DNA of 64,000 nucleotides, taken from NCBI RefSeq assembly GCF_044647545.1, contig NZ_CP172818.1; one strand, 5' to 3'. How positions within the stretch are numbered: the first letter of the stretch is position 1; every line of letters starts with the position of its first letter. This stretch comes from Escherichia coli (GTDB lineage: Bacteria; Pseudomonadota; Gammaproteobacteria; Enterobacterales; Enterobacteriaceae). Both the position numbers and the translations under genes were made by a program. Below are positions 1,705-50,958 of the stretch, piece by piece. The notes beneath the pieces are model-generated. The model saw nothing but the letters and a program-made list of their open reading frames with translations, did no database searches and was not told the DNA's origin.

Positions 1705-3030
1705 TTAAACCCGGCTACCCCACAAATCGTACTCATCGGCGTGCTCGACTTTCACACGCAGGATATCACCCGGCTTAACGTTGGTTTCACCATTGAGATA
1801 AACCGCGCCGTCGATTTCCGGTGCATCTGCCATGCTGCGACCAATCGCACCTTCTTCGTCCACTTCGTCGATAATCACCAGAATTTCACGGCCCACTTTC
1901 TCTTGCAGGCGCTCGGCGGAAATCTGCTGCTGCAACTGCATGAAACGGTTCCAGCGTTCTTCTTTCACTTCTTCCGGAACCTGGTCAGGCAGGGCATTGG
2001 CGTCTGCACCTTCAACCGGGCTGTATTTAAAGCAGCCAACGCGATCCAGACGTGCTTCTTTCAGGAAGTCGAGTAGCATCTGGAAATCTTCTTCCGTCTC
2101 GCCAGGGAAACCGACAATAAAGGTTGAGCGTAGGGTCAGTTCCGGGCAGATTTCGCGCCACTGTTTGATGCGCGCCAGTTGGCGATCTACAGAACCCGGA
2201 CGCTTCATCAGTTTGAGAATGCGCGGGCTGGCGTGCTGCAACGGAATGTCCAGATACGGCAGGATTTTGCCTTCTGCCATCAGTGGGATGACGTCGTCCA
2301 CATGCGGATAAGGGTAAACGTAGTGCAGACGTGTCCAGATCCCCAGTTTCGATAACTGTTCGCACAGGCTGACCATGCTGGTTTTTACCGGCTCGCCGTT
2401 GTGGAAGCCAGTACGATGTTTAACATCAACGCCATAGGCGGAAGTATCCTGCGAGATCACCAGAATCTCTTTAACGCCCGCATCAACCAGACGTTTCGCT
2501 TCACTTAACACTTCGCCAATAGGACGGCTCACCAGGTCGCCGCGCATAGACGGAATAATGCAGAAGGTGCAGCGGTGATTACAGCCTTCAGAAATTTTCA
2601 GATAGGCATAATGACGCGGCGTCAGTTTCACGCCTTGTTCTGGCACCAGGCTCAGGAATGGGTTGTGTTTCGGTTTTGGCACGTAGTGATGAACGTGCTC
2701 CAGAACCTGCTCATAGCTATGAGGCCCGGTGATTTCCAGCACTTTCGGGTGGACTTCGCGGATCTGATCTTCTTTTGCCCCCAGACAACCGGTCACAATT
2801 ACCTTGCCGTTTTCATTCAACGCTTCACCAATGGCTTCCAGTGATTCTTGTACCGCGCTGTCAATAAAGCCGCAGGTGTTGACGATCACCATGTCCGCAT
2901 CGTCATAGCTCGGTACCACGTCATAACCTTCAGTGCGTAGTTCGGTGAGAATACGCTCTGAATCGACAAGGTTTTTCGGACAGCCAAGGGAAACAAAGCC
3001 GATTTTCGGCTGGGGAGTTACTTTGCTCAT
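1705..3030 (-). CDS. rimO: Ribosomal protein S12 methylthiotransferase RimO (radical SAM, MiaB family)
   Basis: 441 aa ORF, CxxxCxxC radical-SAM motif (CNHRCTFC), length and sequence match RimO/YliG. Confidence 0.93.
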
Positions 3031-3242
3031 AGCTTAAAAAATATTCAGTTACAGGAAAGGTCAGGGCAGGGATTCTACAGAGTTCTGGATAAAATTTGTA
3101 TCGCAATCTCATACGCTGGCGGAGGCGAAGGAAATGTAAATTTTGTTAATTCGGCGTGAAGAATTGATCCTGGACAGCATTTTGCTCAAAAAATAGCCAT
3201 ACTATTTAATTGCAACAAGGCTGGAAAGAGGAGGATCGAAGT

Positions 3243-3626
3243 ATGTTCGTTGACAGACAGCGAATCGATCTGCTGAACCGGTTGATCGACGCACGCGTTG
3301 ACCTCGCCGCATACGTGCAACTGAGGAAGGCAAAAGGATACATGTCCGTCAGCGAAAGCAATCATCTACGAGATAACTTTTTTAAACTGAATCGCGAACT
3401 GCACGATAAATCGCTGCGGTTGAATCTTCATCTGGATCAGGAAGAGTGGAGTGCTCTTCATCATGCTGAAGAAGCATTAGCGACAGCCGCAGTATGTTTG
3501 ATGAGTGGGCACCATGATTGCCCGACTGTTATTACCGTCAACGCCGATAAGCTTGAAAATTGTCTGATGAGCTTAACGCTGAGTATCCAGAGCCTGCAGA
3601 AGCACGCCATGCTTGAGAAGGCCTGA
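3243..3626 (+). CDS. bssR: Biofilm regulator BssR
   Basis: 127 aa from ATG 3243 (MFVDRQRIDLL...), RBS gaggag upstream; ORF-track start 3210 is an upstream in-frame extension. Confidence 0.88.
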   Translation: MFVDRQRIDLLNRLIDARVDLAAYVQLRKAKGYMSVSESNHLRDNFFKLNRELHDKSLRLNLHLDQEEWSALHHAEEALATAAVCLMSGHHDCPTVITVNADKLENCLMSLTLSIQSLQKHAMLEKA

Positions 3627-3631
3627 AAACT

Positions 3632-3670
3632 AAGGGGGAGAAAGCGTCTCCCCCTTCATGTTTAAGTTTT
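3632..3670 (+). terminator. Putative rho-independent terminator after bssR
   Basis: Hairpin gggggag-aaagcgt-ctccccc followed by T-rich tract. Confidence 0.55.
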
Positions 3671-3736
3671 TGTAAAAATGAATTTGTTCTCTCCTCCACT
3701 GACTACGCTTTAAGCCAGAGTCAATCCGGAGGCGTT

Positions 3737-4852
3737 ATGCATCGACAATTCTTTTTCCTTGTGCCCCTTATTTGTCTTTCTTCCGCTCTCTGGGCGGCTC
3801 CTGCAACGGTAAATGTCGAAGTACTGCAAGACAAACTCGACCATCCCTGGGCGCTGGCCTTTTTACCCGACAATCACGGTATGTTAATCACTCTGCGCGG
3901 CGGCGAGTTGCGTCACTGGCAAGCAGGAAAAGGATTATCTGCGCCGCTTTCCGGAGTGCCGGACGTTTGGGCGCACGGGCAGGGCGGCCTGCTGGACGTG
4001 GTTTTAGCGCCTGATTTTGCTCAGTCTCGCCGCATCTGGTTAAGTTATTCCGAAGTAGGCGATGATGGCAAAGCCGGAACTGCTGTGGGTTATGGCCGCT
4101 TAAGTGATGATCTCTCAAAAGTGACCGACTTCCGCACCGTCTTTCGTCAGATGCCAAAACTGTCTACCGGCAACCATTTTGGCGGGCGGATGGTATTCGA
4201 CGGTAAAGGTTATCTTTTGATTGCTCTGGGCGAAAACAATCAGCGCCCGACGGCGCAGGATCTGGATAAATTACAGGGCAAACTGGTGCGTCTGACCGAC
4301 CAGGGCGAAATCCCGGATGATAATCCTTTTATAAAGGAATCCGGTGCACGCGCCGAGATCTGGTCTTATGGCATTCGTAATCCACAAGGAATGGCGATGA
4401 ATCCGTGGAGTAAAGCACTATGGCTGAATGAACATGGCCCGCGCGGTGGTGATGAAATTAATATCCCGCAAAAAGGCAAAAACTACGGCTGGCCGCTGGC
4501 AACCTGGGGAATCAACTATTCGGGCTTTAAGATACCGGAAGCGAAAGGGAAGATCGTCGCCGGGACCGAGCAACCTGTTTTTTACTGGAAAGATTCGCCC
4601 GCCGTGAGCGGCATGGCCTTCTATAACAGCGATAAATTCCCCCAGTGGCAGCAAAAATTATTTATTGGCGCGCTGAAAGATAAAGATGTCATTGTGATGA
4701 GCGTCAACGGCGACAAAGTGACAGAAGATGGCCGTATTTTAACGGACAGAGGGCAGCGAATTCGTGATGTTCGCACTGGACCCGACGGTTATTTATACGT
4801 TCTCACCGACGAGTCCAGTGGGGAATTACTTAAAGTTAGCCCACGCAATTAG
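3737..4852 (+). CDS. yliI: Soluble aldose sugar dehydrogenase YliI (PQQ-dependent, signal peptide)
   Basis: 371 aa ORF with N-terminal signal peptide; matches YliI. Confidence 0.9.
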
Positions 4853-5475
4853 CTAACGGGAATCATCACCACTTTGCGCACTGCGGGGCGTTCAGTGAGT
4901 TGCTGATACCAGCGTTGCAGATTTGGACGCGGTGTCCAGGTCAGGCCAACATTAAACAAATTGTAGATGAACGGTGCGATAGCGATATCGCCCACACCAA
5001 ACTCGTCGCCGGAGAACCATTTTACTTTTGCCAGTTCCGCATCGAGCAGGGCAAACAGGGCGTCGCACTCTTTACAACTGGCATCAATGGCGGCCTGATC
5101 GCGCTCTTCCGGTGGTGTTCTGACTAATCCCATCAGGATCCCGCGATGGGCATTACTGAGCGTCTGGTTTGCCCAGTCCATCCATTTTTCTGCTTCCGCA
5201 CGACGTGCCGGTGAGTCGATCCACAGGCGTTTTTGCCCGTACTGTGCCGCCAGATAGCGGACAATGGCGTTTGATTCCCAAAGAATGAGATCACTTTCGT
5301 CGTCACGCAACAATGGCACCAGCCCGTTAGGGTTCATCGCCAGAAAATCAGCATCGTGATTTATCCCAAACTCACGGCCCGCGAGAATTTGCTCATAAGG
5401 TAGTTCCAGTTCTTCGAGCGTCAGCAATACTTTTTTTACGTTGGTTGAATTATTCCGACCCCACAGCGTAATCAT
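4849..5475 (-). CDS. gstB: Glutathione S-transferase GstB (YliJ)
   Basis: 208 aa from ATG ([13 protein letters not shown]...); 4-bp convergent stop overlap with yliI. Confidence 0.9.
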
Positions 5476-5721
5476 ACTCACCCCTTTTCCGACAGGCAGC
5501 CACAGGCTGAACAGGACTTTGATGGTGAAGTAAAGTTAACTTTTAAGCAACAGCTGGCAAAAAAATGACAACAGAAGCAGCGAAGCGGCAGGATATTGCA
5601 TAAACTTTAAAAACTTTACCAACTTACGGTTTCTTTAAGTTTGTGTGTGCGTTATTAATCACCGAACTTATCATACGGCGATATAACGTATTTTTTTTGA
5701 ATGGATACTCGGGTGGCATTT

Positions 5722-6924
5722 ATGACGCAATACTCCTCTCTCCTTCGTGGTCTTGCAGCGGGTTCTGCATTTTTATTCCTTTTTGCCCCAACGGCATTCG
5801 CGGCCGAACAAACCGTTGAAGCGCCGAGCGTGGATGCGCGTGCATGGATTTTAATGGATTACGCCAGCGGTAAAGTGCTGGCAGAAGGCAATGCGGATGA
5901 GAAACTGGATCCCGCGAGCCTGACTAAAATCATGACCAGCTATGTGGTTGGGCAGGCGCTTAAGGCCGATAAGATTAAACTCACCGATATGGTGACGGTC
6001 GGTAAAGATGCCTGGGCGACGGGAAATCCGGCACTGCGTGGTTCATCGGTAATGTTCCTCAAACCGGGCGATCAGGTTTCGGTGGCAGACTTGAACAAAG
6101 GTGTGATTATCCAGTCCGGTAATGACGCCTGTATTGCGCTGGCCGATTACGTTGCCGGGAGCCAGGAGTCATTTATTGGTTTGATGAATGGTTATGCCAA
6201 AAAACTGGGTCTGACCAACACTACCTTCCAGACGGTGCACGGTCTGGATGCGCCGGGGCAGTTCAGTACCGCGCGCGATATGGCATTGCTGGGTAAAGCA
6301 TTAATCCACGATGTGCCGGAAGAGTATGCCATTCATAAAGAGAAAGAGTTCACCTTCAACAAAATTCGTCAGCCTAACCGTAACCGTCTGCTGTGGAGCA
6401 GCAATCTGAATGTTGATGGCATGAAGACAGGAACCACTGCAGGCGCGGGATATAATCTGGTTGCTTCGGCTACCCAGGGTGATATGCGTTTAATCTCCGT
6501 AGTGCTGGGGGCGAAAACTGACCGTATCCGTTTTAATGAGTCTGAGAAATTATTGACCTGGGGTTTCCGCTTCTTTGAAACCGTGACGCCAATTAAACCT
6601 GATGCCACCTTTGTGACTCAGCGCGTCTGGTTTGGTGATAAGAGCGAAGTGAATCTCGGGGCAGGCGAAGCGGGCTCAGTGACCATACCGCGTGGGCAGC
6701 TGAAAAACCTGAAAGCGAGCTACACGTTAACGGAACCGCAGCTTACCGCACCGCTGAAAAAAGGTCAGGTTGTCGGGACCATTGATTTCCAGCTTAACGG
6801 TAAATCCATTGAGCAGCGTCCGCTGATCGTGATGGAAAATGTGGAAGAGGGCGGATTCTTTGGTCGGATGTGGGATTTCGTGATGATGAAATTCCATCAG
6901 TGGTTCGGCAGCTGGTTCTCTTAA
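5722..6924 (+). CDS. dacC: D-alanyl-D-alanine carboxypeptidase DacC (PBP6)
   Basis: 400 aa, signal peptide, SxxK motif (SLTK), SGN motif; matches DacC. Confidence 0.92.
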
Positions 6925-6931
6925 TTTTGTG

Positions 6932-6964
6932 ATAACCGGATGGCGCGAAACGTCATCCGGTTAT
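6932..6964. terminator. Bidirectional hairpin between convergent dacC and deoR
   Basis: 11-bp inverted repeat ataaccggatg / catccggttat with 11-nt loop. Confidence 0.55.
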
Positions 6965-6970
6965 ACGTCA

Positions 6971-7729
6971 TTAATACATCAACTTAATACGCTGCGTCTG
7001 CGCGTACTTCACATACTCATCTTCCGGGCAACAATCGCTCACTACAATATCAAAGCGTTTCAGGTCACCCATGCGTGCCGGACGCACCTTGCCAAATTTA
7101 CTGTGGTCGACAACCAGCACATGCTTTTGCGCCATCGACATGGCCCAGTGTTTTACCGGCAACTCTTCAAGATTAAAACAGGTAGCGCCCTTACTGACAT
7201 GCACCCCCGCCGCGGAATAAAAAGCGATATCCGGGCAAAAATTATTCAGCGTTTGCTGAAAATCGATGGGTTTGAAAATGGCGTTGCTGGCGTGAAATTC
7301 ACCACCGCAAAGAAACGCGCGGCAATGAGGTTTCTCTTTCAGTGCCAGAAAGGTATTTAGCGAATAACAAACGGCGGTGAAAGGGATTTCATTATCAATC
7401 GCTTCAATAATCCACGGTGTGGTGGTGCCACAGTCAAAAAAGAGGGTCTGATCGGGTTCTACCAGCGTCGCAGCCAGTTTTGCCGCCCGGCGTTTTTCTT
7501 CCACCAGGCGGGATTTTTGATCGCTTAGCAGGTAATGGCTGGCGCTGCGCGGTTCCAGAACAATATAGCCGCCGAGCAAAACGACGGGCGCACTGTGGTT
7601 GTTCAGATCGCGACGAATCGTCATCTCCGAAACCCCAAGCAGGGCGGCGGCGTCTTTAAGATGTAACTTATCGCTGCGTTTTAATTCTTGCAGCAGCTGC
7701 CCGATACGCTCTTCGCGACGTGTTTCCAT
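6971..7729 (-). CDS. deoR: DNA-binding transcriptional repressor DeoR
   Basis: 252 aa, N-terminal HTH, DeoR-family C-terminal domain; matches DeoR. Confidence 0.92.
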   Translation of the reverse strand: METRREERIGQLLQELKRSDKLHLKDAAALLGVSEMTIRRDLNNHSAPVVLLGGYIVLEPRSASHYLLSDQKSRLVEEKRRAAKLAATLVEPDQTLFFDCGTTTPWIIEAIDNEIPFTAVCYSLNTFLALKEKPHCRAFLCGGEFHASNAIFKPIDFQQTLNNFCPDIAFYSAAGVHVSKGATCFNLEELPVKHWAMSMAQKHVLVVDHSKFGKVRPARMGDLKRFDIVVSDCCPEDEYVKYAQTQRIKLMY

Positions 7730-7786
7730 AATCCCTCTGAATAGTTATTGAAGCGAGCCGCTCAATACTACACTTTTTAGCAGAGA

Positions 7787-8383
7787 TCAGTCACGCACCC
7801 AGCCTTTGCGGATCGGTAATGCAAAACAGAAGCGATACCACGATTGCAGACGTTGATAGAGTTTATGCCCCATCGCTTGCCAGATAATCTGGGCGCTAAG
7901 GCAGCCAATCATACCTGCCAGCAATCCACCGAGCATATCCAGCGGCCAGTGGACGCCAAGATAAACGCGCGACCAGGCAATGACGACGGCCAGCACCATT
8001 AAAAGTGAGCCGGACCACAGGCGATGCCAGCATAAAAATGCCAGTGCAAAGGTGAAAATCACCGTACCGTGATCGCTCGGGAATGAGTCATCCGCCGCAT
8101 GATGCAGGAAGTTATAGCCGATATTTTCGACAAAGGGTCGGTCGTGCGGAAAAAGATGTCCCATCGTCCAGGACACCAACAGGCTGACCGCCAGCGCGAT
8201 AGCGATTTTTATCACCAGTTGCCGTTGTGCTGTAAGCCCCCACAACCAAAGTACCGCGGCCAGCAGCGGCACCACGGTAATCAAATCTTTAGCAATAAAA
8301 ATCGCCAACGAGATCATCCACGGCGCAGAGTCTGGCGTCGCGTTAATAAGAGAGAATAGAGAGAGATTCAAATTTTCCAGCAT
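7787..8383 (-). CDS. ybjG: Undecaprenyl-pyrophosphate phosphatase YbjG (PAP2 family)
   Basis: 198 aa from ATG 8383 (MLENLNLSLF...), multi-TM PAP2 motifs. Confidence 0.88.
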   Translation of the reverse strand: MLENLNLSLFSLINATPDSAPWMISLAIFIAKDLITVVPLLAAVLWLWGLTAQRQLVIKIAIALAVSLLVSWTMGHLFPHDRPFVENIGYNFLHHAADDSFPSDHGTVIFTFALAFLCWHRLWSGSLLMVLAVVIAWSRVYLGVHWPLDMLGGLLAGMIGCLSAQIIWQAMGHKLYQRLQSWYRFCFALPIRKGWVRD

Positions 8384-8667
8384 AACTTCCCGACGCAAAG
8401 TGATTAAAAGGGAGCCAATACAGGCAAGTCGTTGAGAATAAAGTGCAGGTTAAACTGGGTAAAGCGGCATCGTCTTATTTCCCTCAAGCGGCCTGTTTAC
8501 GGTGGGTGATTGTAACGGGCATAGGTTAAATAAAACTTAAAGAAAGCGTAGCTATACTCGCAATAATGTAAGAATGTGCTTAACCGTGGTTTCAGCTACA
8601 AAATTTGCTTTCTCGTTAGCTGCGCTTTTATTAAACTTTGCGCGATTATTATTGGCGAAGAAATTGC

Positions 8668-9900
8668 ATGCAAAATAAATTAGCTTCCGGTGCCAGGCTT
8701 GGACGTCAGGCGTTACTTTTCCCTCTCTGTCTGGTGCTTTACGAATTTTCAACCTATATCGGCAACGATATGATTCAACCCGGTATGTTGGCGGTGGTGG
8801 AACAATATCAGGCGGGCATTGATTGGGTTCCTACTTCGATGACCGCGTATCTGGCGGGCGGGATGTTTTTACAATGGCTCCTGGGGCCGCTGTCGGATCG
8901 TATTGGCCGCCGTCCGGTGATGCTGGCGGGAGTGGTGTGGTTTATCGTCACCTGTCTGGCAATATTACTGGCGCAAAACATTGAACAATTCACCCTGTTG
9001 CGCTTCTTGCAGGGCATAAGCCTCTGTTTCATTGGCGCTGTGGGATACGCCGCAATTCAGGAATCCTTCGAAGAGGCGGTTTGTATCAAGATCACCGCGC
9101 TGATGGCGAACGTGGCGCTGATTGCTCCGCTACTTGGTCCGCTGGTGGGCGCGGCGTGGATCCATGTGCTGCCCTGGGAGGGGATGTTTGTCTTGTTTGC
9201 CGCATTGGCAGCGATCTCCTTTTTCGGTCTGCAACGAGCCATGCCTGAAACCGCCACGCGTATAGGCGAGAAACTGTCGCTGAAAGAACTCGGTCGTGAC
9301 TATAAGCTGGTGCTGAAGAACGGTCGCTTTGTGGCGGGGGCGCTGGCGCTGGGATTCGTTAGCCTGCCGTTGTTGGCGTGGATCGCCCAGTCGCCGATTA
9401 TCATTATTACCGGTGAGCAGTTGAGCAGCTATGAATATGGCTTGCTGCAAGTGCCTATTTTTGGGGCGTTAATTGCGGGTAACTTGCTGTTAGCGCGTCT
9501 GACCTCGCGCCGCACCGTACGTTCGCTGATTATTATGGGCGGCTGGCCGATTATGATTGGTCTGTTGGTCGCTGCTGCGGCAACGGTTATCTCATCGCAC
9601 GCGTATTTATGGATGACCGCCGGGTTAAGTATTTATGCTTTCGGTATTGGTCTGGCGAATGCGGGACTGGTGCGATTAACCCTGTTTGCCAGCGATATGA
9701 GTAAAGGTACGGTTTCTGCGGCGATGGGGATGCTGCAAATGCTGATCTTTACCGTCGGTATTGAAATCAGCAAACATGCCTGGCTGAACGGGGGCAACGG
9801 ACTGTTTAATCTCTTCAACCTTGTCAACGGCATTTTGTGGCTGTTGCTGATGGTTATCTTTTTAAAAGATAAACAGATGGGAAATTCGCACGAAGGGTAA
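8668..9900 (+). CDS. mdfA: Multidrug efflux MFS transporter MdfA (Cmr)
   Basis: 410 aa from ATG 8668 ([14 protein letters not shown]...), 12-TM MFS; matches MdfA. Confidence 0.93.
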
Positions 9901-9937
9901 AAAAATGCCTGATTGCTTTGTGCGATCAGGCATTCTC
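9901..9937 (+). terminator. Putative terminator after mdfA
   Basis: 10-bp inverted repeat aatgcctgat / atcaggcatt flanked by A-run and followed by ttctc. Confidence 0.55.
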
Positions 9938-9940
9938 AAA

Positions 9941-10225
9941 TTAATGGTGATGGTCGTCAATCTGGTGTTCGATAACCATCCCTTCACCTACGCTGGCAAG
10001 ATGGCGAACATAAGGATGCGGGCGGTAAGCCGGAGCTGGCGCAGGAGCCACATAGACGGTTTGCGGCACAGTCGCGACGCTGACCGCTTGTGGAACACTG
10101 ACTGAATCAGGAACCACAACCACTTTGTATCCACTCGGCACATCGACGGTGACACTTTGCGCCATCGCCACACCAGTAAAGCCCATTAAAAGCGCGCCCA
10201 ACAGTAGACAATTTTTCATAATCAT
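9941..10225 (-). CDS. ybjH: Uncharacterised secreted protein YbjH (DUF1471-like)
   Basis: 94 aa ORF with signal peptide; synteny between mdfA and ybjI. Confidence 0.8.
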   Translation of the reverse strand: MIMKNCLLLGALLMGFTGVAMAQSVTVDVPSGYKVVVVPDSVSVPQAVSVATVPQTVYVAPAPAPAYRPHPYVRHLASVGEGMVIEHQIDDHHH

Positions 10226-10310
10226 TTCGCCTGAAATAATGCAGCGGGTTAATTTCCGCGAATTATGCAGCCTTCATTCAGGCATTGTGTTGCCGGGCGT
10301 GCTGCCGTTT

Positions 10311-11126
10311 TTATTGGTTAAATGGCGCTTCGTGTTTAAGAACTTTATCGATCACATCCAGTACGCCTTCACGGTTATTGGAGCCTGCCCGGTATTTTGC
10401 TGCTGCGACGACCGCGCTGCCGGCATTTTCCATTGCAAAACTAAAGCCTGCCTGACGCAGCATCTCAATATCGTTACCGCCATCGCCAAAGACCACCACT
10501 TCGCTGTCGTCTATTCCCCATAATTTCTGCAGTTGGCGAAGGCCATTGGCTTTATGTACGCCGGGGATAATCAGATCGATGCTGCCGTTGCCGGTGTGGA
10601 CCGGCACCATAATATCGCCGATGGCCTCATGTAATGCTTTTTGTACTTGTGGAATCAGTTCATCAGAAAGATTCAGGCCAAACTTAAAGAAGATATCTTC
10701 TAAGTTGTCAAAGTTATCGACGTATTCCAGACGGTGATAATACATTTCCGCCACCGTTTTCATGGCATCGTCATATTTTTTGAGGGTATAGGCGCTATTT
10801 TTTCCGCAGGCAATAATTTCCACTTCCGGGCGCGTCAGCAAATGTTCCACGACAGTAGCAAACGCATCTTTCGACAGCTCGCCATTAAAAACATCTTTGC
10901 CTTCGCTCACTACCCAGCCGCCGTTTTCAGCCACAAAGGCAATTTCATTAGCAATTTCAGGGAAGAAAGAGATCAACTGATAATATTGATTCCCGCTGGC
11001 GACCACAAAGCGAATGCCTTGTGCTTTCATTTGCTGATACTGAGCCATAAACCGCTCACGGTTATAGGTTTTTTGATCGCTTAAGAAAGTACCATCCATG
11101 TCTACCGCAATTAATTTAATGCTCAT
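10311..11126 (-). CDS. ybjI: HAD-family phosphatase YbjI (FMN/5-amino-6-ribitylamino-uracil phosphate phosphatase)
   Basis: 271 aa ([15 protein letters not shown]...), HAD motif DxDGT; start overlaps ybjJ stop. Confidence 0.9.
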   Translation of the reverse strand: MSIKLIAVDMDGTFLSDQKTYNRERFMAQYQQMKAQGIRFVVASGNQYYQLISFFPEIANEIAFVAENGGWVVSEGKDVFNGELSKDAFATVVEHLLTRPEVEIIACGKNSAYTLKKYDDAMKTVAEMYYHRLEYVDNFDNLEDIFFKFGLNLSDELIPQVQKALHEAIGDIMVPVHTGNGSIDLIIPGVHKANGLRQLQKLWGIDDSEVVVFGDGGNDIEMLRQAGFSFAMENAGSAVVAAAKYRAGSNNREGVLDVIDKVLKHEAPFNQ

Positions 11127-12334
11127 CAACTATTCTCCATCGCCGTCTGCGTTTTGGTATCGGGTTTGGCGACGGCTTTCGCGACAATAGCCGCGAGAAT
11201 AACCAGCGCCAGTACAACCATCATTGCACTACGTAATCCATAATGTTCGCCGAGATAGCCCAGCAGCGGCGGCCCGACGAGGAAAGCCAGATAACCGGTC
11301 GTAGCTACCACGCTGACGCGGGTTGGTGCATCGGGGCCGGTATCGCTGGCGGCAGAAATGGTCAGAGGGAAGCCCAGCGAGGCACCCAGTCCCCAAAGTA
11401 CAACAGACACCCCAGCGACCCAGGCGCTATCGACAAAAATAATCAGGCCAATACCCAACGCTCCCATTAGTGCACTGGCCCGAACCACGGCAACGCGACT
11501 GTAACGGTCGATGAACCAACCGCCGGTAAAGCGTCCAACAGTCATCCCCAGGGTAAAACCGGCATAAATCAGCGAGCCGGAAGTAGGGCTAAAACCGTGA
11601 CCGTCAACCATTAATAAGGGTAACCAGTCGTTGGCAGAACCTTCGGCAAAGGCCATCGCCAGCACCACAACACCAATCAGCAGCAACTGGATATCCCGAT
11701 AAAAAGGTACGCCTTTTTCACCATGCTGGGTGCCATCGGCAGCATTTTTGCCCGTACCGTCAGGGATTGCCTGAATGGCGATATAAATAGGCGCGATGCC
11801 TACCAGCGCCGCCAATAAAATGTGCACCGTTGCCGGAACGCCAAAGGCCGTCAGTGCCATCCCGACACCAGCGCCTGCCAGCGTGCCCAGGCTATAAAAA
11901 CCGTGCATCATCGGCAAAACCGTCTTATTCATTTCTCGCTCAACGGCAGCACCTTCAACGTTTATCGCCACTTCCGCAGAACCAAAACTTGCCCCAAAGA
12001 CGCCGAGACCAACCGCGAAGAGCAGGGGCGATGTCAGCCAGAGTGCCAGGCTTAGTATCATCATCCCAATCAATGCGCAGGACATCGTCACAAGGATGAC
12101 ATTACGCGTCCCAAAGCGTTTCACTAACCACGCCGAGCAGAGAATACCGCTCATCGAACCGATCGACAGACCAAAGAGAACACCGCCCATTTCAGCGATC
12201 GAGACAGAGAGAATATCGCGGATAGCAGGCGTACGGGTTGCCCAGGACGCCATTAACAGGCCTGGCAAAAAGAAGAACATAAACAGCGCCCAGGTTCGGC
12301 GTTTCAATGCATTACGTGAAGAATTTACGGTCAT
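11126..12334 (-). CDS. ybjJ: MFS transporter YbjJ
   Basis: 402 aa from ATG 12334 ([13 protein letters not shown]...), multi-TM. Confidence 0.88.
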
Positions 12335-12417
12335 AGACCACGTCAAAATAAGAAGAGGGAAGACAACATTAGCAAGATTGTGTACATTTGTACACAATTG
12401 TAGAGAGAGGAAATGAC

Positions 12418-12954
12418 ATGCGTCGCGCTAACGATCCGCAACGGCGAGAAAAAATTATCCAGGCCACGCTGGAGGCGGTGAAACTTTATGGAATACATGC
12501 TGTTACACACCGCAAAATTGCTACCCTTGCCGGGGTACCGTTGGGATCGATGACTTACTATTTTTCAGGAATTGATGAGTTGTTGCTGGAGGCGTTCAGC
12601 CGTTTTACTGAGATCATGTCCCGGCAATATCAGGCATTTTTTAGCGATGTTAGTGATGCTCCGGGCGCATGCCAGGCTATCACCGATATGATCTACAGCT
12701 CACAGGTTGCAACGCCGGATAACATGGAGCTGATGTACCAGCTCTACGCGCTGGCTAGCCGAAAACCGCTATTAAAAACGGTAATGCAAAACTGGATGCA
12801 GCGCAGTCAGCAAACGCTCGAACAATGGTTTGAACCCGGAACCGCCCGCGCGCTTGATGCGTTTATTGAGGGGATGACGCTGCATTTTGTCACCGACCGT
12901 AAGCCGCTATCGCGCGAGGAGATTTTGAGGATGGTTGAGAGGGTTGCAGGGTAG
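12418..12954 (+). CDS. rcdA: TetR-family regulator RcdA (YbjK)
   Basis: 178 aa from ATG 12418 ([13 protein letters not shown]...), N-terminal TetR HTH. Confidence 0.9.
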
Positions 12955-12973
12955 TAGATAAATTTCAGGCAAC

Positions 12974-13052
12974 AAAAAACCCACCAACCTTGAACCGAAA
13001 TGGCGGGGTTGATGGGCTCCACAAAATGGGGACATCAAAGAAAAGCAGTGGC
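12974..13052 (-). ncRNA. rybB: sigmaE-dependent small RNA RybB
   Basis: Minus-strand sequence GCCACTGCTTTTCTTTGATGTCCCCATTTTGTGGAGCCCATCAACCCCGCCATTTCGGTTCAAGGTTGGTGGGTTTTTT matches RybB as recalled, with 3' terminator hairpin and U-run; rcdA-ybjL intergenic location. Confidence 0.85.
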
Positions 13053-13128
13053 ACTAATTAAGACTGATGCCCTGCGGAAAAGTTCTGCGGTTGTGCAAAA
13101 AAATTTCATTTTCAGGGCAACTTCAGTT

Positions 13129-14814
13129 TTATCCTAATCCTGGCCATACCATGACGATGATTGTCCCTGCTAGCGTCAGCAGGACGTTGGCGATTGCATA
13201 GGTGCCCGCATAGCCCAGCGCCGGGATGTTACTGCGAGCTGTATCACTGATGATCTCCATTGCCGGCGCGCAGGTGCGTGCGCCCATCATTGCGCCGAAC
13301 AACAGTGCGCGGTTCATTCGCAATACATAAGCACCGAACAAGAAGCAGATAACCACTGGCACCAGACTGACAATCAATCCGGCAATCAACATTTGACCGC
13401 CAATCGCGCCCAGGCCGTTATTAATACCGCTACCGGCGCTCAGACCAACGCCTGCCATAAACACCATCAAGCCGAACTCTTTCACCATGCTTAATGCACC
13501 TTGCGGAATGTAACCGAAGGTCGGGTGGTTAGCACGCATAAAGCCCAGCATAATTCCGGCGAATAACAACCCGGCAGCGTTCCCCATGCCGAAACTGAAT
13601 GTGCTGAACTGGAAGGTGATCATCCCGATCATCAGCCCAATAACAAAGAAGGCGCAGAATGCCAGCAAGTCAGTGACCTGGCTGTGAATCGAGATAAAGC
13701 CGATGCGATCGGCGATGGTTTTTACGCGACGGGCATCGCCGCTGACTTGTAAAACGTCACCTTTGTTAAGCACGACGTTGTCATCAATCGGCATCTCAAT
13801 CTGGCTACGAATGACGCGGTTAAGGAAGCAACCGTGATCGGTCAACTTCAGTTGTGCGAGACGTTTGCCTACAGCGTTATGGTTTTTAACGACCACTTCT
13901 TCAGTGACGATACGCATGTCGAGAAGGTCACGATCGAAAACTTCTTTGCCATTACGGAAACTGGGATCGAGTCGGGCGTGGGCGTCGGGGTAGCCTACCA
14001 ACGCTATTTCATCGCCCATTTGTAGCACGGCATCACCGTCTGGATTTGCCAGAATCCCGTTACGCCGAATACGTTCAATGTAACAGCCAGTTTGTCGATA
14101 AATACCCAGTTCACGCAGATTTTTGCCGTCGGTCCAGGCCACCAGCTCCGGGCCGACGCGGTAGGCGCGGATCACCGGTAAATAAACCTTACGGTTGGCA
14201 TCAGTGTCCAGGCCACGTTCGCGGGCGATTTGCTGGGCGCTGGTCTGTAAGTCCTGATGCTGCAATTTCGGCAAGTAACGCGCACCAACAATCAAACTCA
14301 CCAGACCGATTAAATAGGTTAAGGCATATCCGAGGCTCAGATTATCCAGCGCCAGTGAGAGCTGCCTGCTTTCCATACCGGAATGACGCAGTGTATCGCC
14401 AGCACCGACCAAAACCGGTGTTGACGTCATAGAGCCTGCTAACATACCGGCCGTCAGGCCAATATCCCAGCCAAACAGCTTACCTAACCCTAAGGCGATG
14501 ACCAGCGCACTGCCAACCATCACCAGTGCTAACATTAGGTAATTTTTCCCATCGCGAAAAAAAATGGAAAAAAAGTTCGGTCCGGCTTCGACCCCGACGC
14601 AGAAAATAAACAGCATAAAGCCAAGATTAAGCGCGTCGGTGTTAATGCTGAAATGTTGTTGGCCTAATAACAGCGATACGACTAAAACGCCAATGGAATT
14701 ACCCAGTTGGATCGAACCAAGTCGTAATTTCCCGAGACATAGCCCAAGCGCGAGGACCACAAATAATAACAGAATGTAATTCCCATTTAACAATTCGGCG
14801 ACGTTTATATTCAC
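13129..14814 (-). CDS. ybjL: Putative transporter YbjL (AAE family, two TrkA-C domains)
   Basis: 561 aa multi-TM ORF; matches YbjL. Confidence 0.9.
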
Positions 14815-15083
14815 GGAGGCTAACTTCTTGTTTACTAGTAAGCTGTTGAAAGAAATGGTAATTTACGATAATGTTTTTTACCAGAATTCAGGGCGCAGAT
14901 TCATTCAGCGCACCTAAACGATAGTAAAGTAACAATATATTTTACTAGTGTAATCACATTAGGTATCAACGGCTATATGAATTGCGTTGGCCTATATTAG
15001 CATGGAATGCGAAGCGGCTTTATCTTACTGAACGCCACACTGGCGAAAAATGTGTTCGATAGACGCAGTGTCAGGAGGAACGA

Positions 15084-15461
15084 GTGAAACATAAACAACG
15101 TTGGGCGGGGGCAATCTGCTGTTTTGTCCTCTTCATTGTGGTGTGCCTTTTTCTGGCGACGCACATGAAAGGCGCTTTTCGGGCTGCCGGGCATCCTGAA
15201 ATCGGCTTGCTGTTTTTCATTCTTCCTGGAGCAGTTGCCAGCTTCTTTTCACAGCGTAGAGAAGTCCTGAAACCTCTGTTTGGCGCAATGCTGGCGGCAC
15301 CCTGTTCAATGCTTATTATGCGGCTGTTTTTTTCACCGACGCGCTCATTCTGGCAAGAGCTGGCATGGTTATTAAGTGCGGTGTTCTGGTGTGCGCTGGG
15401 GGCACTGTGTTTCTTATTTATCAGTAGTTTGTTTAAACCACAGCACAGAAAAAATCAATAA
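15084..15461 (+). CDS. ybjM: Inner membrane protein YbjM
   Basis: 125 aa, 4 predicted TM segments. Confidence 0.85.
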   Translation: MKHKQRWAGAICCFVLFIVVCLFLATHMKGAFRAAGHPEIGLLFFILPGAVASFFSQRREVLKPLFGAMLAAPCSMLIMRLFFSPTRSFWQELAWLLSAVFWCALGALCFLFISSLFKPQHRKNQ

Positions 15462-15484
15462 AGCCCTCAACGCGAGGGCTTGTC
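15462..15484. terminator. Bidirectional hairpin between convergent ybjM and grxA
   Basis: Inverted repeat agccctc / gagggct with 5-nt loop. Confidence 0.5.
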
Positions 15485-15490
15485 AGACGA

Positions 15491-15748
15491 TCAGGCGTCC
15501 AGATTCTCTTTCACCCATGCAGCAAAATCGGTATAGCCGCCGATATGTTGCTGATCGACAAAAATCTGCGGCACGGTTTCTACGGGTTTACCTGCCTTTT
15601 GTTGTAGATCTTCTTTAGTGATCCCTTCCGCACGAATATCTACATACTGATACTGAAAATCATCGCGTTCATTGCTCAATTTCTCAGCCAGATCTTTTGC
15701 ACGCACACAGTAAGGGCAACCCGGACGACCAAAAATAACGGTTTGCAT
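15491..15748 (-). CDS. grxA: Glutaredoxin 1
   Basis: 85 aa from ATG 15748 (MQTVIFGRPGCPYCVRAK...), CPYC active site. Confidence 0.93.
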   Translation of the reverse strand: MQTVIFGRPGCPYCVRAKDLAEKLSNERDDFQYQYVDIRAEGITKEDLQQKAGKPVETVPQIFVDQQHIGGYTDFAAWVKENLDA

Positions 15749-15907
15749 TATTTCTCTCCTCATAGATTTATGCCTGTAATGATCACGCTAAAATGTATTC
15801 GCTGAAAGTAGGTTTAACCTGTTGCATTAATTGCTAAAAGCTATAACTGTTAAACACAATACGGTGAAAAGTTTTAGACTGAAGGCTCATTTTGCAGAGG
15901 GAAGCGT

Positions 15908-16195
15908 ATGCGCGCGATCGGTAAATTGCCTAAAAGCGTGTTGATACTGGAATTTATCGGAATGATGTTGCTGGCGGTGGCGCTGCTGTCGGTAAGCGGC
16001 TCCCTGTCGCTGCCTGAGCCATTTTCTCGGCCAGAAGTGCAGATTCTGATGATTTTTCTCGGTGTTTTGCTCATGCTTCCCGCTGCGGTGGTGGTTATTC
16101 TTCAGGTGGCAAAACGTCTTGCCCCACAGCTGATGAACCGCCCAACGCAATATTCACGTTCAGAAAGAGAAAAAGATAATGACGCCAACCATTGA
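15908..16195 (+). CDS. ybjC: Small membrane protein YbjC
   Basis: 95 aa, 2 TM; overlaps nfsA start (operon ybjC-nfsA-rimK-ybjN). Confidence 0.85.
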   Translation: MRAIGKLPKSVLILEFIGMMLLAVALLSVSGSLSLPEPFSRPEVQILMIFLGVLLMLPAAVVVILQVAKRLAPQLMNRPTQYSRSEREKDNDANH

Positions 16196-16901
16196 ACTTA
16201 TTTGTGGCCATCGCTCCATTCGCCATTTCACTGATGAACCCATTTCCGAAGCGCAGCGTGAGGCGATTATTAACAGCGCCCGTGCGACGTCCAGTTCCAG
16301 TTTTTTGCAGTGTAGTAGCATTATTCGCATTACCGACAAAGCATTACGTGAAGAACTGGTGACGCTGACCGGCGGGCAAAAACACGTAGCGCAAGCGGCG
16401 GAGTTCTGGGTGTTCTGTGCCGACTTTAACCGCCATTTACAGATCTGTCCGGATGCTCAGCTCGGCCTGGCGGAACAGCTGTTGCTCGGTGTCGTTGATA
16501 CGGCAATGATGGCGCAGAATGCATTAACCGCAGCGGAATCGCTGGGATTGGGCGGGGTATATATCGGCGGCCTGCGCAATAATATTGAAGCGGTGACGGA
16601 GCTGCTGAAATTACCGCGGCATGTTCTGCCGCTGTTTGGGCTGTGCCTTGGCTGGCCTGCGGATAATCCGGATCTTAAGCCGCGTTTACCGGCCTCCATT
16701 TTGGTGCATGAAAACAGCTATCAACCGCTGGATAAAGACGCACTGGCGCAGTATGACGAACAACTGGCGGAATATTACCTCACCCGTGGCAGCAATAATC
16801 GCCGGGATACCTGGAGCGATCATATCCGCCGAACAATCATTAAAGAAAGCCGCCCATTTATTCTGGATTATTTGCACAAACAGGGTTGGGCGACGCGCTA
16901 A
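16179..16901 (+). CDS. nfsA: Oxygen-insensitive NADPH nitroreductase NfsA
   Basis: 240 aa (MTPTIELICGHRSIRHFTDEPI...), matches NfsA. Confidence 0.93.
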   Translation: MTPTIELICGHRSIRHFTDEPISEAQREAIINSARATSSSSFLQCSSIIRITDKALREELVTLTGGQKHVAQAAEFWVFCADFNRHLQICPDAQLGLAEQLLLGVVDTAMMAQNALTAAESLGLGGVYIGGLRNNIEAVTELLKLPRHVLPLFGLCLGWPADNPDLKPRLPASILVHENSYQPLDKDALAQYDEQLAEYYLTRGSNNRRDTWSDHIRRTIIKESRPFILDYLHKQGWATR

Positions 16902-16961
16902 AACCGCCACGTCGATGTATGATACGCGGGCTTTTGACCAGGTCTGAAAGAGAGGTGCAGG

Positions 16962-17864
16962 GTGAAAATTGCCATATTGTCCCGGGATGGAACGCTCTAT
17001 TCGTGTAAGCGGCTGCGTGAAGCCGCTATACAGCGTGGTCACCTGGTTGAAATTCTTGATCCGCTTTCTTGCTACATGAACATAAATCCTGCGGCGTCTT
17101 CTATTCACTACAAAGGCCGCAAGTTACCCCATTTTGACGCTGTGATCCCGCGTATTGGTACCGCCATTACCTTTTATGGGACGGCGGCACTGCGCCAGTT
17201 CGAGATGCTGGGGAGCTATCCGCTCAATGAGTCGGTCGCCATTGCCCGGGCGCGTGACAAATTGCGTTCCATGCAACTGCTGGCGCGTCAGGGCATCGAC
17301 CTGCCTGTCACGGGCATTGCGCATTCGCCGGATGATACCAGCGATTTAATCGACATGGTCGGTGGTGCGCCGCTGGTGGTTAAGCTGGTTGAAGGTACGC
17401 AGGGAATTGGTGTCGTGCTGGCGGAGACGCGTCAGGCGGCCGAAAGCGTGATTGACGCTTTCCGCGGTCTGAACGCGCATATTCTGGTGCAGGAATATAT
17501 CAAAGAGGCGCAAGGGTGCGATATCCGCTGTCTGGTTGTTGGCGATGAAGTGGTCGCTGCGATTGAACGGCGGGCGAAAGAGGGCGATTTTCGTTCCAAT
17601 TTGCATCGTGGCGGCGCGGCAAGCGTCGCCAGTATCACACCACAGGAGCGTGAAATCGCGATAAAAGCCGCGCGAACGATGGCGCTGGACGTTGCTGGTG
17701 TAGATATTTTGCGTGCTAATCGCGGGCCATTGGTGATGGAAGTGAATGCGTCGCCGGGGCTGGAAGGAATAGAAAAAACCACCGGTATCGACATCGCGGG
17801 TAAAATGATCCGCTGGATCGAACGCCACGCAACGACGGAATATTGCCTGAAAACGGGTGGTTAG
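16962..17864 (+). CDS. rimK: Ribosomal protein S6 glutamate ligase RimK (ATP-grasp)
   Basis: 300 aa ([18 protein letters not shown]...), ATP-grasp fold. Confidence 0.93.
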
Positions 17865-28493: not shown

Positions 28494-28710
28494 TGACACT
28501 CGTATACTGGCAGTCTGATAGCTATTGAGGTCGAAGATAGTACCTTTGACAGAATAATTATGCAATATTTCTGCTTTAAAAGTTAAAAGCAAAGCGCATT
28601 ATTCAATAAACATAGCACAAAATAACGGGGGCGGTGGTCGGCGAGCATAAATGTCGGCATTCCTCACGAAATGCCGGACAATTTACGGGGTTTATTGGTT
28701 GATCAAGGCG

Positions 28711-29226
28711 TTAGCGATTCTCGATGGACTGACGGAGCGTACCCGCTGTGGCATGAACGCTACCGCCTAAGTAGCGCACATCGTCGATGACCCAACACTG
28801 GCCTTCCTGAATCATTAACACTTCATCCTGCCAGCCCTGGTCACCCTGTTTGAGATCCACGCGCAATGGAATGTTACGGGCATCACGATTAGGGATAGTC
28901 GATGCACTGGCAACGTGGGCGCTGTCTGGCAAGGTGGTTCGACTGGAGAACGGATCGCTGCTTAACAATTCACGATGACTATTATCGCGGCTGGCATCGC
29001 TAAGTAGGGTTGCCAGTTTGTCACTCAAATAGGGGCGCAGGGCGGTAATGTCATTGCTACGATGTTGAATGCGGTAGTCATAGAATTGTTGAGCCACGCT
29101 GTCAGGGCCACCCTGGACACAGGAACCGGTGCGGGGGCCGTTATCTTTATAAGCTGGCGTGACGGTGGTACAGGCACTCAGCAGCAGTGCACATGGAATA
29201 AGTAGAGATAGTGAACGGTAGCGCAT
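28711..29226 (-). CDS. ybjP: Lipoprotein YbjP
   Basis: 171 aa from ATG 29226, lipobox LLSAC. Confidence 0.87.
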   Translation of the reverse strand: MRYRSLSLLIPCALLLSACTTVTPAYKDNGPRTGSCVQGGPDSVAQQFYDYRIQHRSNDITALRPYLSDKLATLLSDASRDNSHRELLSSDPFSSRTTLPDSAHVASASTIPNRDARNIPLRVDLKQGDQGWQDEVLMIQEGQCWVIDDVRYLGGSVHATAGTLRQSIENR

Positions 29227-29305
29227 AATCATTTCCTTATTAGCTTGTTCTGAAAAATGGCGTTATACGATAATAGATGATATCCTTTCAATACCATCTT
29301 AAAAG

Positions 29306-29570
29306 CACAAAACAATACTTTATATTATAATAATAAAAATATATACTAATAATTAAAAAAATTAACATATACAACACATAATAAAAAAAAATAATAATTT
29401 AATATAAAAAAATAATTAAAAATTCTAAAAAACTTTAAATAATTTTAATAACAATCAAAATTATTAAATATTAAATCAAAAAAAAAAATTTTTAAAATAA
29501 AAAAAAAACAAATAAAAAAAATAATAATAAAACTATTAAATTATAAAAAAAAACAAATAATATTAAAAAT
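29306..29570. other. Extreme AT block with zero G over ~265 bp; non-enterobacterial composition
   Basis: Counted directly: no G and about 13 C between 29306 and 29570; A/T homopolymers and (aat)n-like tracts. Confidence 0.6.
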
Positions 29571-29629
29571 GGCATATCAGTCCGATAATGCTTTAGAGAT
29601 CGAAGGCTTAACAAACAAGGAGATCGATC

Positions 29630-29953
29630 ATGCAATTTTCTACAACCCCAACTCTGGAAGGCCAGACCATCGTCGAATATTGCGGTGTGGTGACCGGCGA
29701 AGCGATTTTAGGTGCCAATATTTTCCGTGATTTCTTTGCTGGTATCCGCGATATCGTTGGCGGACGCTCCGGGGCTTATGAAAAAGAATTGCGTAAAGCG
29801 CGGGAGATCGCCTTTGAGGAGCTCGGCGATCAGGCCCGGGCGCTGGGGGCCGATGCCGTAGTCGGTATTGATATCGACTATGAAACGGTCGGGCAAAACG
29901 GCAGTATGCTGATGGTTAGCGTCAGCGGTACGGCGGTGAAAACGCGTCGATGA
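29630..29953 (+). CDS. ybjQ: YbjQ (UPF0145 family)
   Basis: 107 aa, RBS aaggag upstream; 4-bp overlap with amiD. Confidence 0.9.
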
Positions 29954-30780
29954 GAAGAGTCTTCTGGCTGGTCGCCGCCGCTCTGTTACTGGCAGGGTGT
30001 GCCGGCGAAAAGGGCATTGTCGAGAAAGAGGGATATCAGCTTGATACCCGACGCCAGGCGCAGGCGGCGTATCCGCGCATTAAAGTGCTGGTGATCCACT
30101 ACACCGCAGATGATTTTGATAGCTCGCTGGCGACACTGACCGATAAGCAGGTCAGCTCGCATTATCTGGTCCCTGCGGTACCACCGCGATACAACGGTAA
30201 ACCGCGCATCTGGCAACTGGTGCCGGAACAGGAACTGGCCTGGCATGCGGGGATTAGCGCCTGGCGCGGGGCAACGCGCCTTAACGACACCTCTATTGGC
30301 ATTGAGCTGGAAAACCGTGGCTGGCAGAAATCAGCCGGAGTGAAATATTTTGCCCCGTTTGAACCGGCACAGATTCAGGCGCTTATTCCACTGGCGAAAG
30401 ATATTATTGCCCGTTATCACATCAAGCCGGAAAACGTAGTGGCACATGCGGATATCGCCCCGCAGCGCAAAGACGATCCGGGGCCATTATTTCCCTGGCA
30501 GCAACTGGCGCAGCAGGGGATTGGTGCCTGGCCGGATGCGCAGCGGGTGAACTTTTACCTTGCCGGGCGCGCGCCGCACACACCGGTAGATACCGCGTCA
30601 TTGCTGGAGCTTTTGGCGCGCTACGGTTATGACGTTAAACCTGATATGACACCGCGCGAGCAGCGGCGCGTGATTATGGCGTTCCAGATGCATTTCCGCC
30701 CGACGTTATACAACGGCGAAGCGGATGCAGAAACTCAGGCGATTGCCGAAGCGTTGCTGGAGAAATACGGGCAGGATTAG
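29950..30780 (+). CDS. amiD: N-acetylmuramoyl-L-alanine amidase AmiD (lipoprotein, amidase_2 family)
   Basis: 276 aa, lipobox LLAGC. Confidence 0.92.
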
Positions 30781-39893: not shown

Positions 39894-40297
39894 GAAAACC
39901 CAGTCCTTGCAAAGATGAAGTCGAAATGCGCGATGACACACTACTGAAAGCGGAAGGACGAGTAAAGTTGCAATTAAAAGGAAATGTTATGCATCAGGAG
40001 CAGGGGATTTTTATTATGTTGCATTGTTGTGGTCTCTTCCATGTGCATTAAGCCACTGGCGAGGAGCGCAAATCGCCGATCGTTTCCTGTAGGCCGGGGC
40101 AGCCCACATAATGTGGGCTGAGGGCGCGTTTTACAGGGATCAAACTTACCGGTCGCGCGAGAAGTCCAACTTCAGCCCGAGGTTCATGTGGCTTCCTGGC
40201 CTTCGGGAACCGCTTCAGCGTATTGACGCCACCAAGACCCGTGGTTCGGTAACGTCGAAGATAAAACAACCAGGGCAGATAAAGTGCCAATGCTTAA

Positions 40298-50545: not shown

Positions 50546-50738
50546 TTTATGGGGTGGAACGGTGAAAACCCTATTTTTGGAGGTGAAGGTAAGTTGTTGA
50601 TAATTAGTGCTGCTGGAAAAGGTAAGGATAAAAAAGGGTGACAGCAGGAAAATGAGATGGTTTTGCTTTATTAACAACGGACTAAACGTGTAGTATTTGA
50701 TTCACTCCGACAATAAAAGAAAATCAAAGTTGAAATGG

Positions 50739-50826
50739 GTTCACTGCCGTACAGGCAGCTTAGAAATTCACTGGTAACATACTCCACCCGCCCACCATGT
50801 TCACTGCCGTACAGGCAGATAAAATG
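50739..50826 (+). CRISPR. Vestigial type I-F CRISPR array: 2 repeats (second degenerate at 3' end), 1 spacer of 32 bp; no cas genes nearby
   Basis: Repeat 1 at 50739-50766 GTTCACTGCCGTACAGGCAGCTTAGAAA (the I-F / Ypest-type repeat); spacer 50767-50798; repeat 2 at 50799-50826 GTTCACTGCCGTACAGGCAGataaaatg; AT-rich leader upstream; clpA-infA location is the known I-F CRISPR site in E. coli. Confidence 0.85.
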
Positions 50827-50870: not shown

Positions 50871-50958
50871 TGGCGGTGAGGGGGGGATTCGAACCCCCGA
50901 TACGTTGCCGTATACACACTTTCCAGGCGTGCTCCTTCAGCCACTCGGACACCTCACC
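50871..50958 (-). tRNA. serW: tRNA-Ser (anticodon GGA)
   Basis: Minus-strand 88-nt sequence GGTGAGGTGTCCGAGTGGCTGAAGGAGCACGCCTGGAAAGTG...GGGGTTCGAATCCCCCCCTCACCGCCA with cloverleaf features, long variable arm, 3' CCA. Confidence 0.93.

Follow-up and report, generated by a model that had tools for sequence, protein, structure and literature searches.

A G-free A/T/C block between ybjP and ybjQ in an Escherichia coli genome record stands in for a gene-bearing island and is probably not real DNA

The stretch of DNA analysed here (64,000 nts, referred to as the window) is ordinary E. coli sequence running from dgcI to ftsK. Between ybjP and ybjQ, the latter followed by amiD, it holds a run of 265 nts without a single G. 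Over positions 17001-42000, which include this locus, the window matches strain 1428 (NZ_CP023366.1) and relatives of this strain at 99.9 % identity. The locus is made up as follows; K-12-type and island-type designate the two states in which the ybjP-ybjQ spacer exists in E. coli.

28711-29226, minus strand: ybjP, lipoprotein gene, intact in the list of open reading frames (ORFs), product identical to WP_001270657.1 of strain 1428
29227-29248: native sequence upstream of ybjP, the last part identical to strain 1428 and other island-type genomes
29249-29293: lead-in resembling the K-12-type and not the island-type spacer; its core, 29260-29293, is identical to the K-12 type at 32 of 34 positions
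29294-29305: 12-nt transition, ccatcttaaaag, which contains the last G before the block and opens a 275-nt segment (29294-29568)
29306-29570, plus strand: G-free run of 265 nts with memoryless statistics, from direct counting and shuffles
29569-29629, plus strand: native upstream region of ybjQ with its ribosome binding site (RBS); at 29569 the match to strain 1428 sets in again without transition and has no mismatch from there on
29630-29953, plus strand: ybjQ, intact according to the ORF list and the alignment with strain 1428
29950-30780, plus strand: amiD, intact on the same two grounds

The spacer measures 403 bp (29227-29629), in agreement with the ~400 bp given in the first-pass annotation of this DNA. 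The flanks, which that annotation had judged native in appearance, are indeed 100 % identical to strain 1428 over ~2.9 kb directly to the left and to the right of the block, with 0 mismatches in 2,932 nts on the right-hand side. The RBS of ybjQ (aaggag) lies at 29617-29622 and its ATG at 29630. On the left, homology of the window to all relatives stops at about 29248-29252. In the neighbouring artP-ybjP spacer, a sub-threshold Rfam match to CRISPR-DR53 was noted at 28645-28681, with 25.9 bits where the gathering score is 45 (E = 0.033); a hairpin or terminator has probably been matched there by chance.

Farther from the block, positions 3001-17000 are 100.0 % identical, in a single piece, to CLSC36, EC488, AH50 and Z226-7, and positions 42001-64000 are 99.8 % identical, again in a single piece, to strain 142. 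Apart from the anomalous places, the ORF list shows every gene at its full length. Since the window shows this identity to strain 1428 and others and its genes are full length, the backbone is authentic and of high quality. An origin in an Escherichia other than E. coli, raised by a first search that ranked matches of ~94 % identity, is ruled out by the 99.9-100 % identity to strain 1428 and others, and a generally poor, unpolished assembly by the intact genes and the 14-kb stretch at 100.0 % identity.

Direct counting of 29306-29570 on the plus strand gives 173 A (65 %), 75 T (28 %), 17 C (6 %) and no G, the nearest bounding G bases being at 29305 and 29571. The absence of G and the longest A run of 11 had both been reported correctly in the first-pass annotation, while its figure of ~13 C was slightly low; of the (aat)n-like tracts that it described, only a weak period-3 ATA array with 76 % matches is found (29327-29353, Tandem Repeats Finder). 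With the base and G frequencies of the window, such a run is expected ~8e-31 times per 64 kb. The second-longest G-free run of the window has only 87 nts and lies within another anomalous stretch at 772-1688. All 17 G+C bases of the run are on one strand (P = 1.5e-5), and the number of C per fifth of its length falls from 5 through 4, 4 and 2 to 2. In comparison, ten natural AT-rich islands from the ybjP-ybjQ locus never go beyond 42 nts without G or without C. A scan of local complexity over the 64 kb returned three outliers only, 801-1740, 29261-29620 and 60461-60720. The last of these falls within the ftsK ORF (58210-62244, 1344 aa), where it presumably reflects the repetitive linker that FtsK naturally contains; the length of FtsK varies from 1329 to 1368 aa in relatives.

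Beyond its composition the block shows no organisation. Compared with composition-matched shuffles, its homopolymer fraction (0.523 against 0.509±0.026), its trinucleotide entropy (3.463 against 3.457±0.022) and its longest A run (11 against 11.5±2.7) all deviate by less than one standard deviation, and a memoryless random process with the same base composition would yield a sequence indistinguishable from the block. Tandem Repeats Finder detects no consistent unit, only overlapping low-score arrays with 63-79 % matches, and a microsatellite or tandem-repeat expansion is ruled out since no defined high-identity unit exists. There are no terminal inverted repeats, merely weak internal AT-rich echoes, the two junctions (caata|ccatc and taaaa|atggc) share no target-site duplication, and no further copy was found in the same genome, in other genomes, in plasmids or phages, or in metagenome or viral contigs. 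A transposable element, whether an insertion sequence or a MITE, is thus ruled out. RNA folding does not exceed what the composition predicts (z = -0.31 for the plus and -0.11 for the minus strand), and Rfam has no match inside the block, which together rule out a structured non-coding RNA. Because every start codon contains a G, no ORF can start on the plus strand within the block; the minus strand has only junk ORFs of 28-47 aa. A horizontally acquired genomic island would carry genes and have homologues elsewhere; neither was found in the block or in the searches described below. The sole mild deviation is an enrichment of promoter-like hexamer pairs (7 against 3.6±1.6).

Among 5,426 complete E. 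coli genomes, the ybjP-ybjQ spacer is found in two states. About 4,296 genomes have the K-12-type spacer of 125 bp, and about 1,130 combine a divergent allele of the 5' part of ybjP with a spacer of ~2.63 kb that holds an AT-rich island. The window has the ybjP allele that is linked to the island in all other genomes: in the wider public assemblies, the exact YbjP protein of the window occurs in ten further distinct contexts, and the island is present in 10 out of 10. In island genomes, homology to the window is lost at about 29252 and regained at 29569, with ~2,539 bp in between as opposed to 316 bp in the window. The missing element is the following.

Strain 1428 locus L002, 12239-14794 (loci L004 to L013, about 1365-4000): island of ~2.54 kb and ~33 % G+C, encoding a ~600-aa protein

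The similarity of this protein to Pentapeptide_4 is only faint; most relatives have an intact copy of the pentapeptide-repeat gene, which is a pseudogene in strain 1428. In the latter strain the island falls within 3194-3197 kb of NZ_CP023366.1. For the comparison with the reference spacer proposed in the first-pass annotation, the short K-12 spacer is the wrong comparator since clonal relatives carry the 2.5-kb island. For the same reason the view that the block had been placed without disrupting genes does not hold, as it replaces a gene-bearing island. Relocation of the island to another place in the window was searched for and ruled out. Judging from these comparisons, the 2.5-kb island almost certainly lies between ybjP and ybjQ in the real chromosome, which is that of a clonal relative of strain 1428. 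None of the 5,426 complete genomes covers the version of the locus seen in the window.

The 316 nts that stand in for the island are not derived from it. Against 11 island variants (strain 1428 and ten others) the similarity of the block is z = -0.2 to -1.5, whereas the positive control, the stretch 772-1688 aligned with its own template, gives z = 21-27; a smeared, collapsed or degraded island remnant is thereby ruled out. In local alignments the lead-in (29249-29293) scores z = 12.4 against the K-12-type spacer and z = -0.3 against the island, and manual alignment identifies the 275-nt segment 29294-29568 as extra relative to the K-12 type, its deletion yielding a collinear K-12-like spacer (...CCTTTCAATA|ATGGCATATCAG...). 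The locus is consequently a mosaic of island-type flanks, a K-12-like fragment and 275 nts of A/T/C. A simple insertion into a K-12-type spacer is an incomplete account, since the ybjP allele of the window is always linked to the 2.5-kb island.

The exact version of the lead-in is absent from the 5,426 complete genomes and from metagenome contigs, the junction patterns do not occur in the same complete genomes, and exact junction and interior patterns gave 0 hits in ~300 Gb of GTDB species-representative genomes, in the metagenome collection and in viral contigs. The BLAST search for a plasmid source suggested in the first-pass annotation was carried out and returned no match among 72,556 plasmids, nor did a search of phages, the low-complexity filter limiting both searches. 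The filter restricts BLAST searches for copies in this way but leaves the exact-pattern scans unaffected.

The block could in principle be a real insertion private to this strain, ~275 bp of A-rich DNA of foreign or untemplated origin, acquired for instance when a break that had taken out the island was repaired. Such an event would be clean with respect to the K-12-type spacer, as shown by the collinearity restored upon removal of 29294-29568; the site is naturally polymorphic, and promoter-like hexamer pairs are somewhat enriched. However, a natural origin would call for three events in a single clone, without any imported flanking K-12 polymorphism: the island would have to be lost, a micro-patch of foreign spacer gained and an insert without precedent acquired. 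The missing target duplication, terminal repeats, homologue and ORF, the memoryless statistics and the presence in the same record of a demonstrably non-natural patch (772-1688, see below) also speak against it, and we consider a strain-private insertion unlikely. A particular form of this idea, that the island was lost in one clone and the break sealed with ~275 nts of untemplated A-rich DNA by a template-independent polymerase or a defence-type reverse transcriptase, is very unlikely; it would represent the first chromosomal “fossil” of such synthesis in E. coli. If real, the insert would place 275 bp of 94 % A+T DNA 61 bp upstream of the ybjQ start, ahead of ybjQ-amiD. Such a tract would be a strong H-NS target, but the analysis lends no support to any of this as biology.

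Two further readings would also take the block as genuine DNA. The first-pass annotation had envisaged a curved or UP-like element upstream of ybjQ, i.e., a regulatory element evolved in place. The block is indeed rich in A-tracts and lies upstream of a gene, but the A-tracts lack helical phasing (at 10-11.25 bp their power is 1.55, where shuffles average 0.94 and have a 95th percentile of 1.99). Its 265 nts compare with ~20 nts for UP elements, it is statistically random, and it is absent from 5,426 genomes including clonal relatives, so that this proposal is effectively refuted. Alternatively, ybjQ-amiD might have been given an engineered upstream spacer, G-less or AT-rich, in a laboratory construct. 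G-less transcription cassettes are designed to exclude one base completely from one strand, but the junctions are devoid of cloning scars, restriction sites, markers and remnants of recombination sites, and DNA of 94 % A+T with long A runs would be hard to synthesise or clone. The plasmid search offers no counterpart either, although the BLAST low-complexity filter may mask this query. Engineering would moreover leave the two other anomalous stretches of the record unexplained, and this reading is very unlikely.

The block is not the only damaged place in the window. Two sister patches were identified, which we number by position, the ybjP-ybjQ block being the second of the three.

772-1688: patch 1, corrupted locus of an HTH antitoxin and a RelE/ParE toxin, collinear with strain 1428
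39998-40294: patch 3, rewritten lysO-aqpZ spacer of normal composition, collinear with relatives but unique in sequence

Patch 1 had been noticed in the first-pass annotation as a block that likewise spares genes; it is actually a corrupted copy of the RelE/ParE-HTH toxin-antitoxin pair, base-for-base collinear with the intact locus of strain 1428, which lies within 3224.0-3225.0 kb of NZ_CP023366.1. Relative to this locus it has 221 substitutions, 70 deleted nts and 0 insertions, and in 82 % of the substitutions the new base is that of a neighbour. Its homopolymer fraction of 0.52 equals that of the G-free block, compared to 0.30 in the true locus and 0.27 in the window. The changes fall into two runs, 772-1169 and 1313-1688, around 143 error-free nts (1170-1312). 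In the first run the error density rises from ~1 to 27 per 25 nts and halts abruptly at 1169; the second also ends abruptly. Sub-stretches exclude A, C, G and T in turn, and the very first change turns the dgcI stop codon from TAG into TAA. Judged against its identical flanks, patch 1 cannot be natural divergence.

Patch 3 escaped the first-pass annotation because its composition is normal. It contains 86 substitutions, 56 deleted nts and 3 insertions, making it ~30-40 % different from relatives and 53 nts shorter than the spacer in clonal relatives, and no genome of the 5,426 covers more than 40 % of it. The deletions are of 8-15 nts, and a new perfect 9-bp hairpin, AGCCCACAT-A-ATGTGGGCT, has appeared at 40101-40119. 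A ctgtaggccgg motif in this patch is REP-like. The polarity is the opposite of that of patch 1, with an abrupt start and a gradual recovery. In strain 1428 (L002, 25704-26729) an IS110-family transposase gene is found between lysO and aqpZ; it is absent from the window and from most close relatives and is ordinary strain variation.

A candidate fourth patch, private differences at 50681-50738, was ruled out: these positions form the natural leader of an orphan CRISPR array with two repeats (50739-50826), located between clpA and tRNA-Ser (50871-50958, minus strand). The array consists of the repeat GTTCACTGCCGTACAGGCAGCTTAGAAA at 50739-50766 (Rfam CRISPR-DR4, 50.1 bits), a 32-nt spacer and a degenerate repeat copy at 50799-50826, with no cas genes nearby. 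In relatives this site also holds integrated phage-like elements (loci L023, L026 and L028).

Every sign of an artefact that was looked for was found, namely absence from relatives that are identical in the flanks, other corrupted stretches in the same record and a noise-like structure. Taking the computational and the wet-lab or assembly readings together, we consider it roughly 85 % likely that the block does not represent real DNA. The first-pass annotation had held an inserted or artefactual origin to be at least as likely as a natural one; the artefactual half of this statement is supported by the absence from relatives, the sister patches and the statistics. Absence from relatives, replacement of the island, random statistics and two sister patches are direct observations.

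As to the kind of process that wrote the block, we infer it from its products only. At about even odds, this was a computational generation or imputation step of the autoregressive genome-language-model kind. Such a step would have rewritten three non-core stretches of an otherwise authentic sequence. The island would have been replaced by 316 nts that open as an approximate recall of the commonest, K-12-type spacer before degenerating into a string of A>T>>C composition without memory; once dropped from the local context, G would never return, and C would be lost in turn in a self-reinforcing manner, until the true sequence resumes abruptly at 29569. Drawing on the majority allele would fit the mosaic of a K-12-like lead-in within island-type flanks, and the progressive loss of first G and then C would be accounted for. 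Likewise, patch 3 is plausible-looking yet matches nothing, all three patches are in non-core, less “memorable” DNA, and the errors in patch 1 ramp up on a collinear template and then stop dead. Among the documented failures of autoregressive genome generation is a low-complexity collapse that produces homopolymer runs (bioRxiv 10.64898/2026.01.17.700093), which we regard as a lead for the generator and not as a test of it. The published collapse, however, yields multi-kb homopolymers after hundreds of kb rather than 265 nts of A/T/C noise. Moreover, the return of patch 1 to perfect in-register sequence at 1170-1312 is not obvious for a free-running generator, and absence from databases would equally be expected of a strain-private insertion. 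Since patch 3 has a polarity opposite to that of patch 1, left-to-right decay becomes a flexible rather than a strictly predictive notion, and the argument from directional decay is no more than suggestive.

A wet-lab or assembly artefact is possible, though clearly short of even odds. Here, the island, the toxin-antitoxin locus and the lysO-aqpZ spacer would have been poorly covered and then bridged by low-quality base calls or consensus beyond repair by polishing, junk calling having collapsed the island. This would agree with patch 1, where collinearity, deletions without insertions and 82 % neighbour-copying are what base calling on broad or smeared signals produces; AT-rich accessory DNA underlies two of the three patches, and coding sequence elsewhere is perfect, as after successful polishing. 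Nevertheless, read errors cannot make a K-12-type fragment that is absent from the strain. The eight-fold collapse from 2,539 to 316 nts has left no residual collinearity (z ~-1), unlike patch 1, and the normal composition, the 8-15 nt deletions and the new 9-bp hairpin of patch 3 do not resemble base-calling noise.

Whichever process was at work, the block is almost certainly an artefact of the record and no new biological element. It would be remarkable if real, but the evidence is strongly opposed. The record holds at least three fabricated or corrupted stretches (772-1688, 29249-29568 and 39998-40294, ~1.5 kb in all), which mask or destroy a toxin-antitoxin pair, the island with its 600-aa pentapeptide-repeat gene and an intergenic spacer. 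The value of the finding is one of quality control, as scans for unusual sequence will go on flagging such patches. They can be recognised by base exclusion, a homopolymer fraction of ~0.5, uniqueness with respect to clonal relatives and perfect flanks.

Several known systems resemble the block in part. With A-tract curved DNA and UP elements it shares A-rich tracts upstream of a gene but differs in having no helical phasing, no conservation and more than ten times the length of UP elements, which are ~20 nts long. Like a G-less cassette, it extends over a few hundred bases with total exclusion of G from one strand; classical cassettes of this type, however, are mixed C/T/A sequences in plasmid reporters, whereas the block is 94 % A+T, has neither promoter nor reporter context and gave no match in the filter-limited BLAST search of plasmids. 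The A-rich tails of retroelements and the poly-dA-rich products of defence reverse transcriptases are similarly strand-asymmetric and dominated by A, with T and C interruptions, but the block lacks an element body, a target duplication and a nearby reverse-transcriptase gene, and we know of no chromosomal integration of such defence products. Stretches of low-quality base calls or consensus provide a good likeness for patch 1, which is collinear, deletion-biased and neighbour-copying beside error-free sequence; the block itself differs in showing no collinearity and about an eighth of the expected length, and the spacer allele ahead of it is foreign to the strain. The collapse of genome language models is similar in the drift from majority-like sequence to a low-entropy composition, in the approximate recall of motifs and in the non-core location of the damage. 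In the published case (bioRxiv 10.64898/2026.01.17.700093), collapse sets in after ~300-400 kb and produces multi-kb runs of a single base, whereas the patches described here are 300-400 nts long, lie inside perfect real sequence and rejoin it in register.
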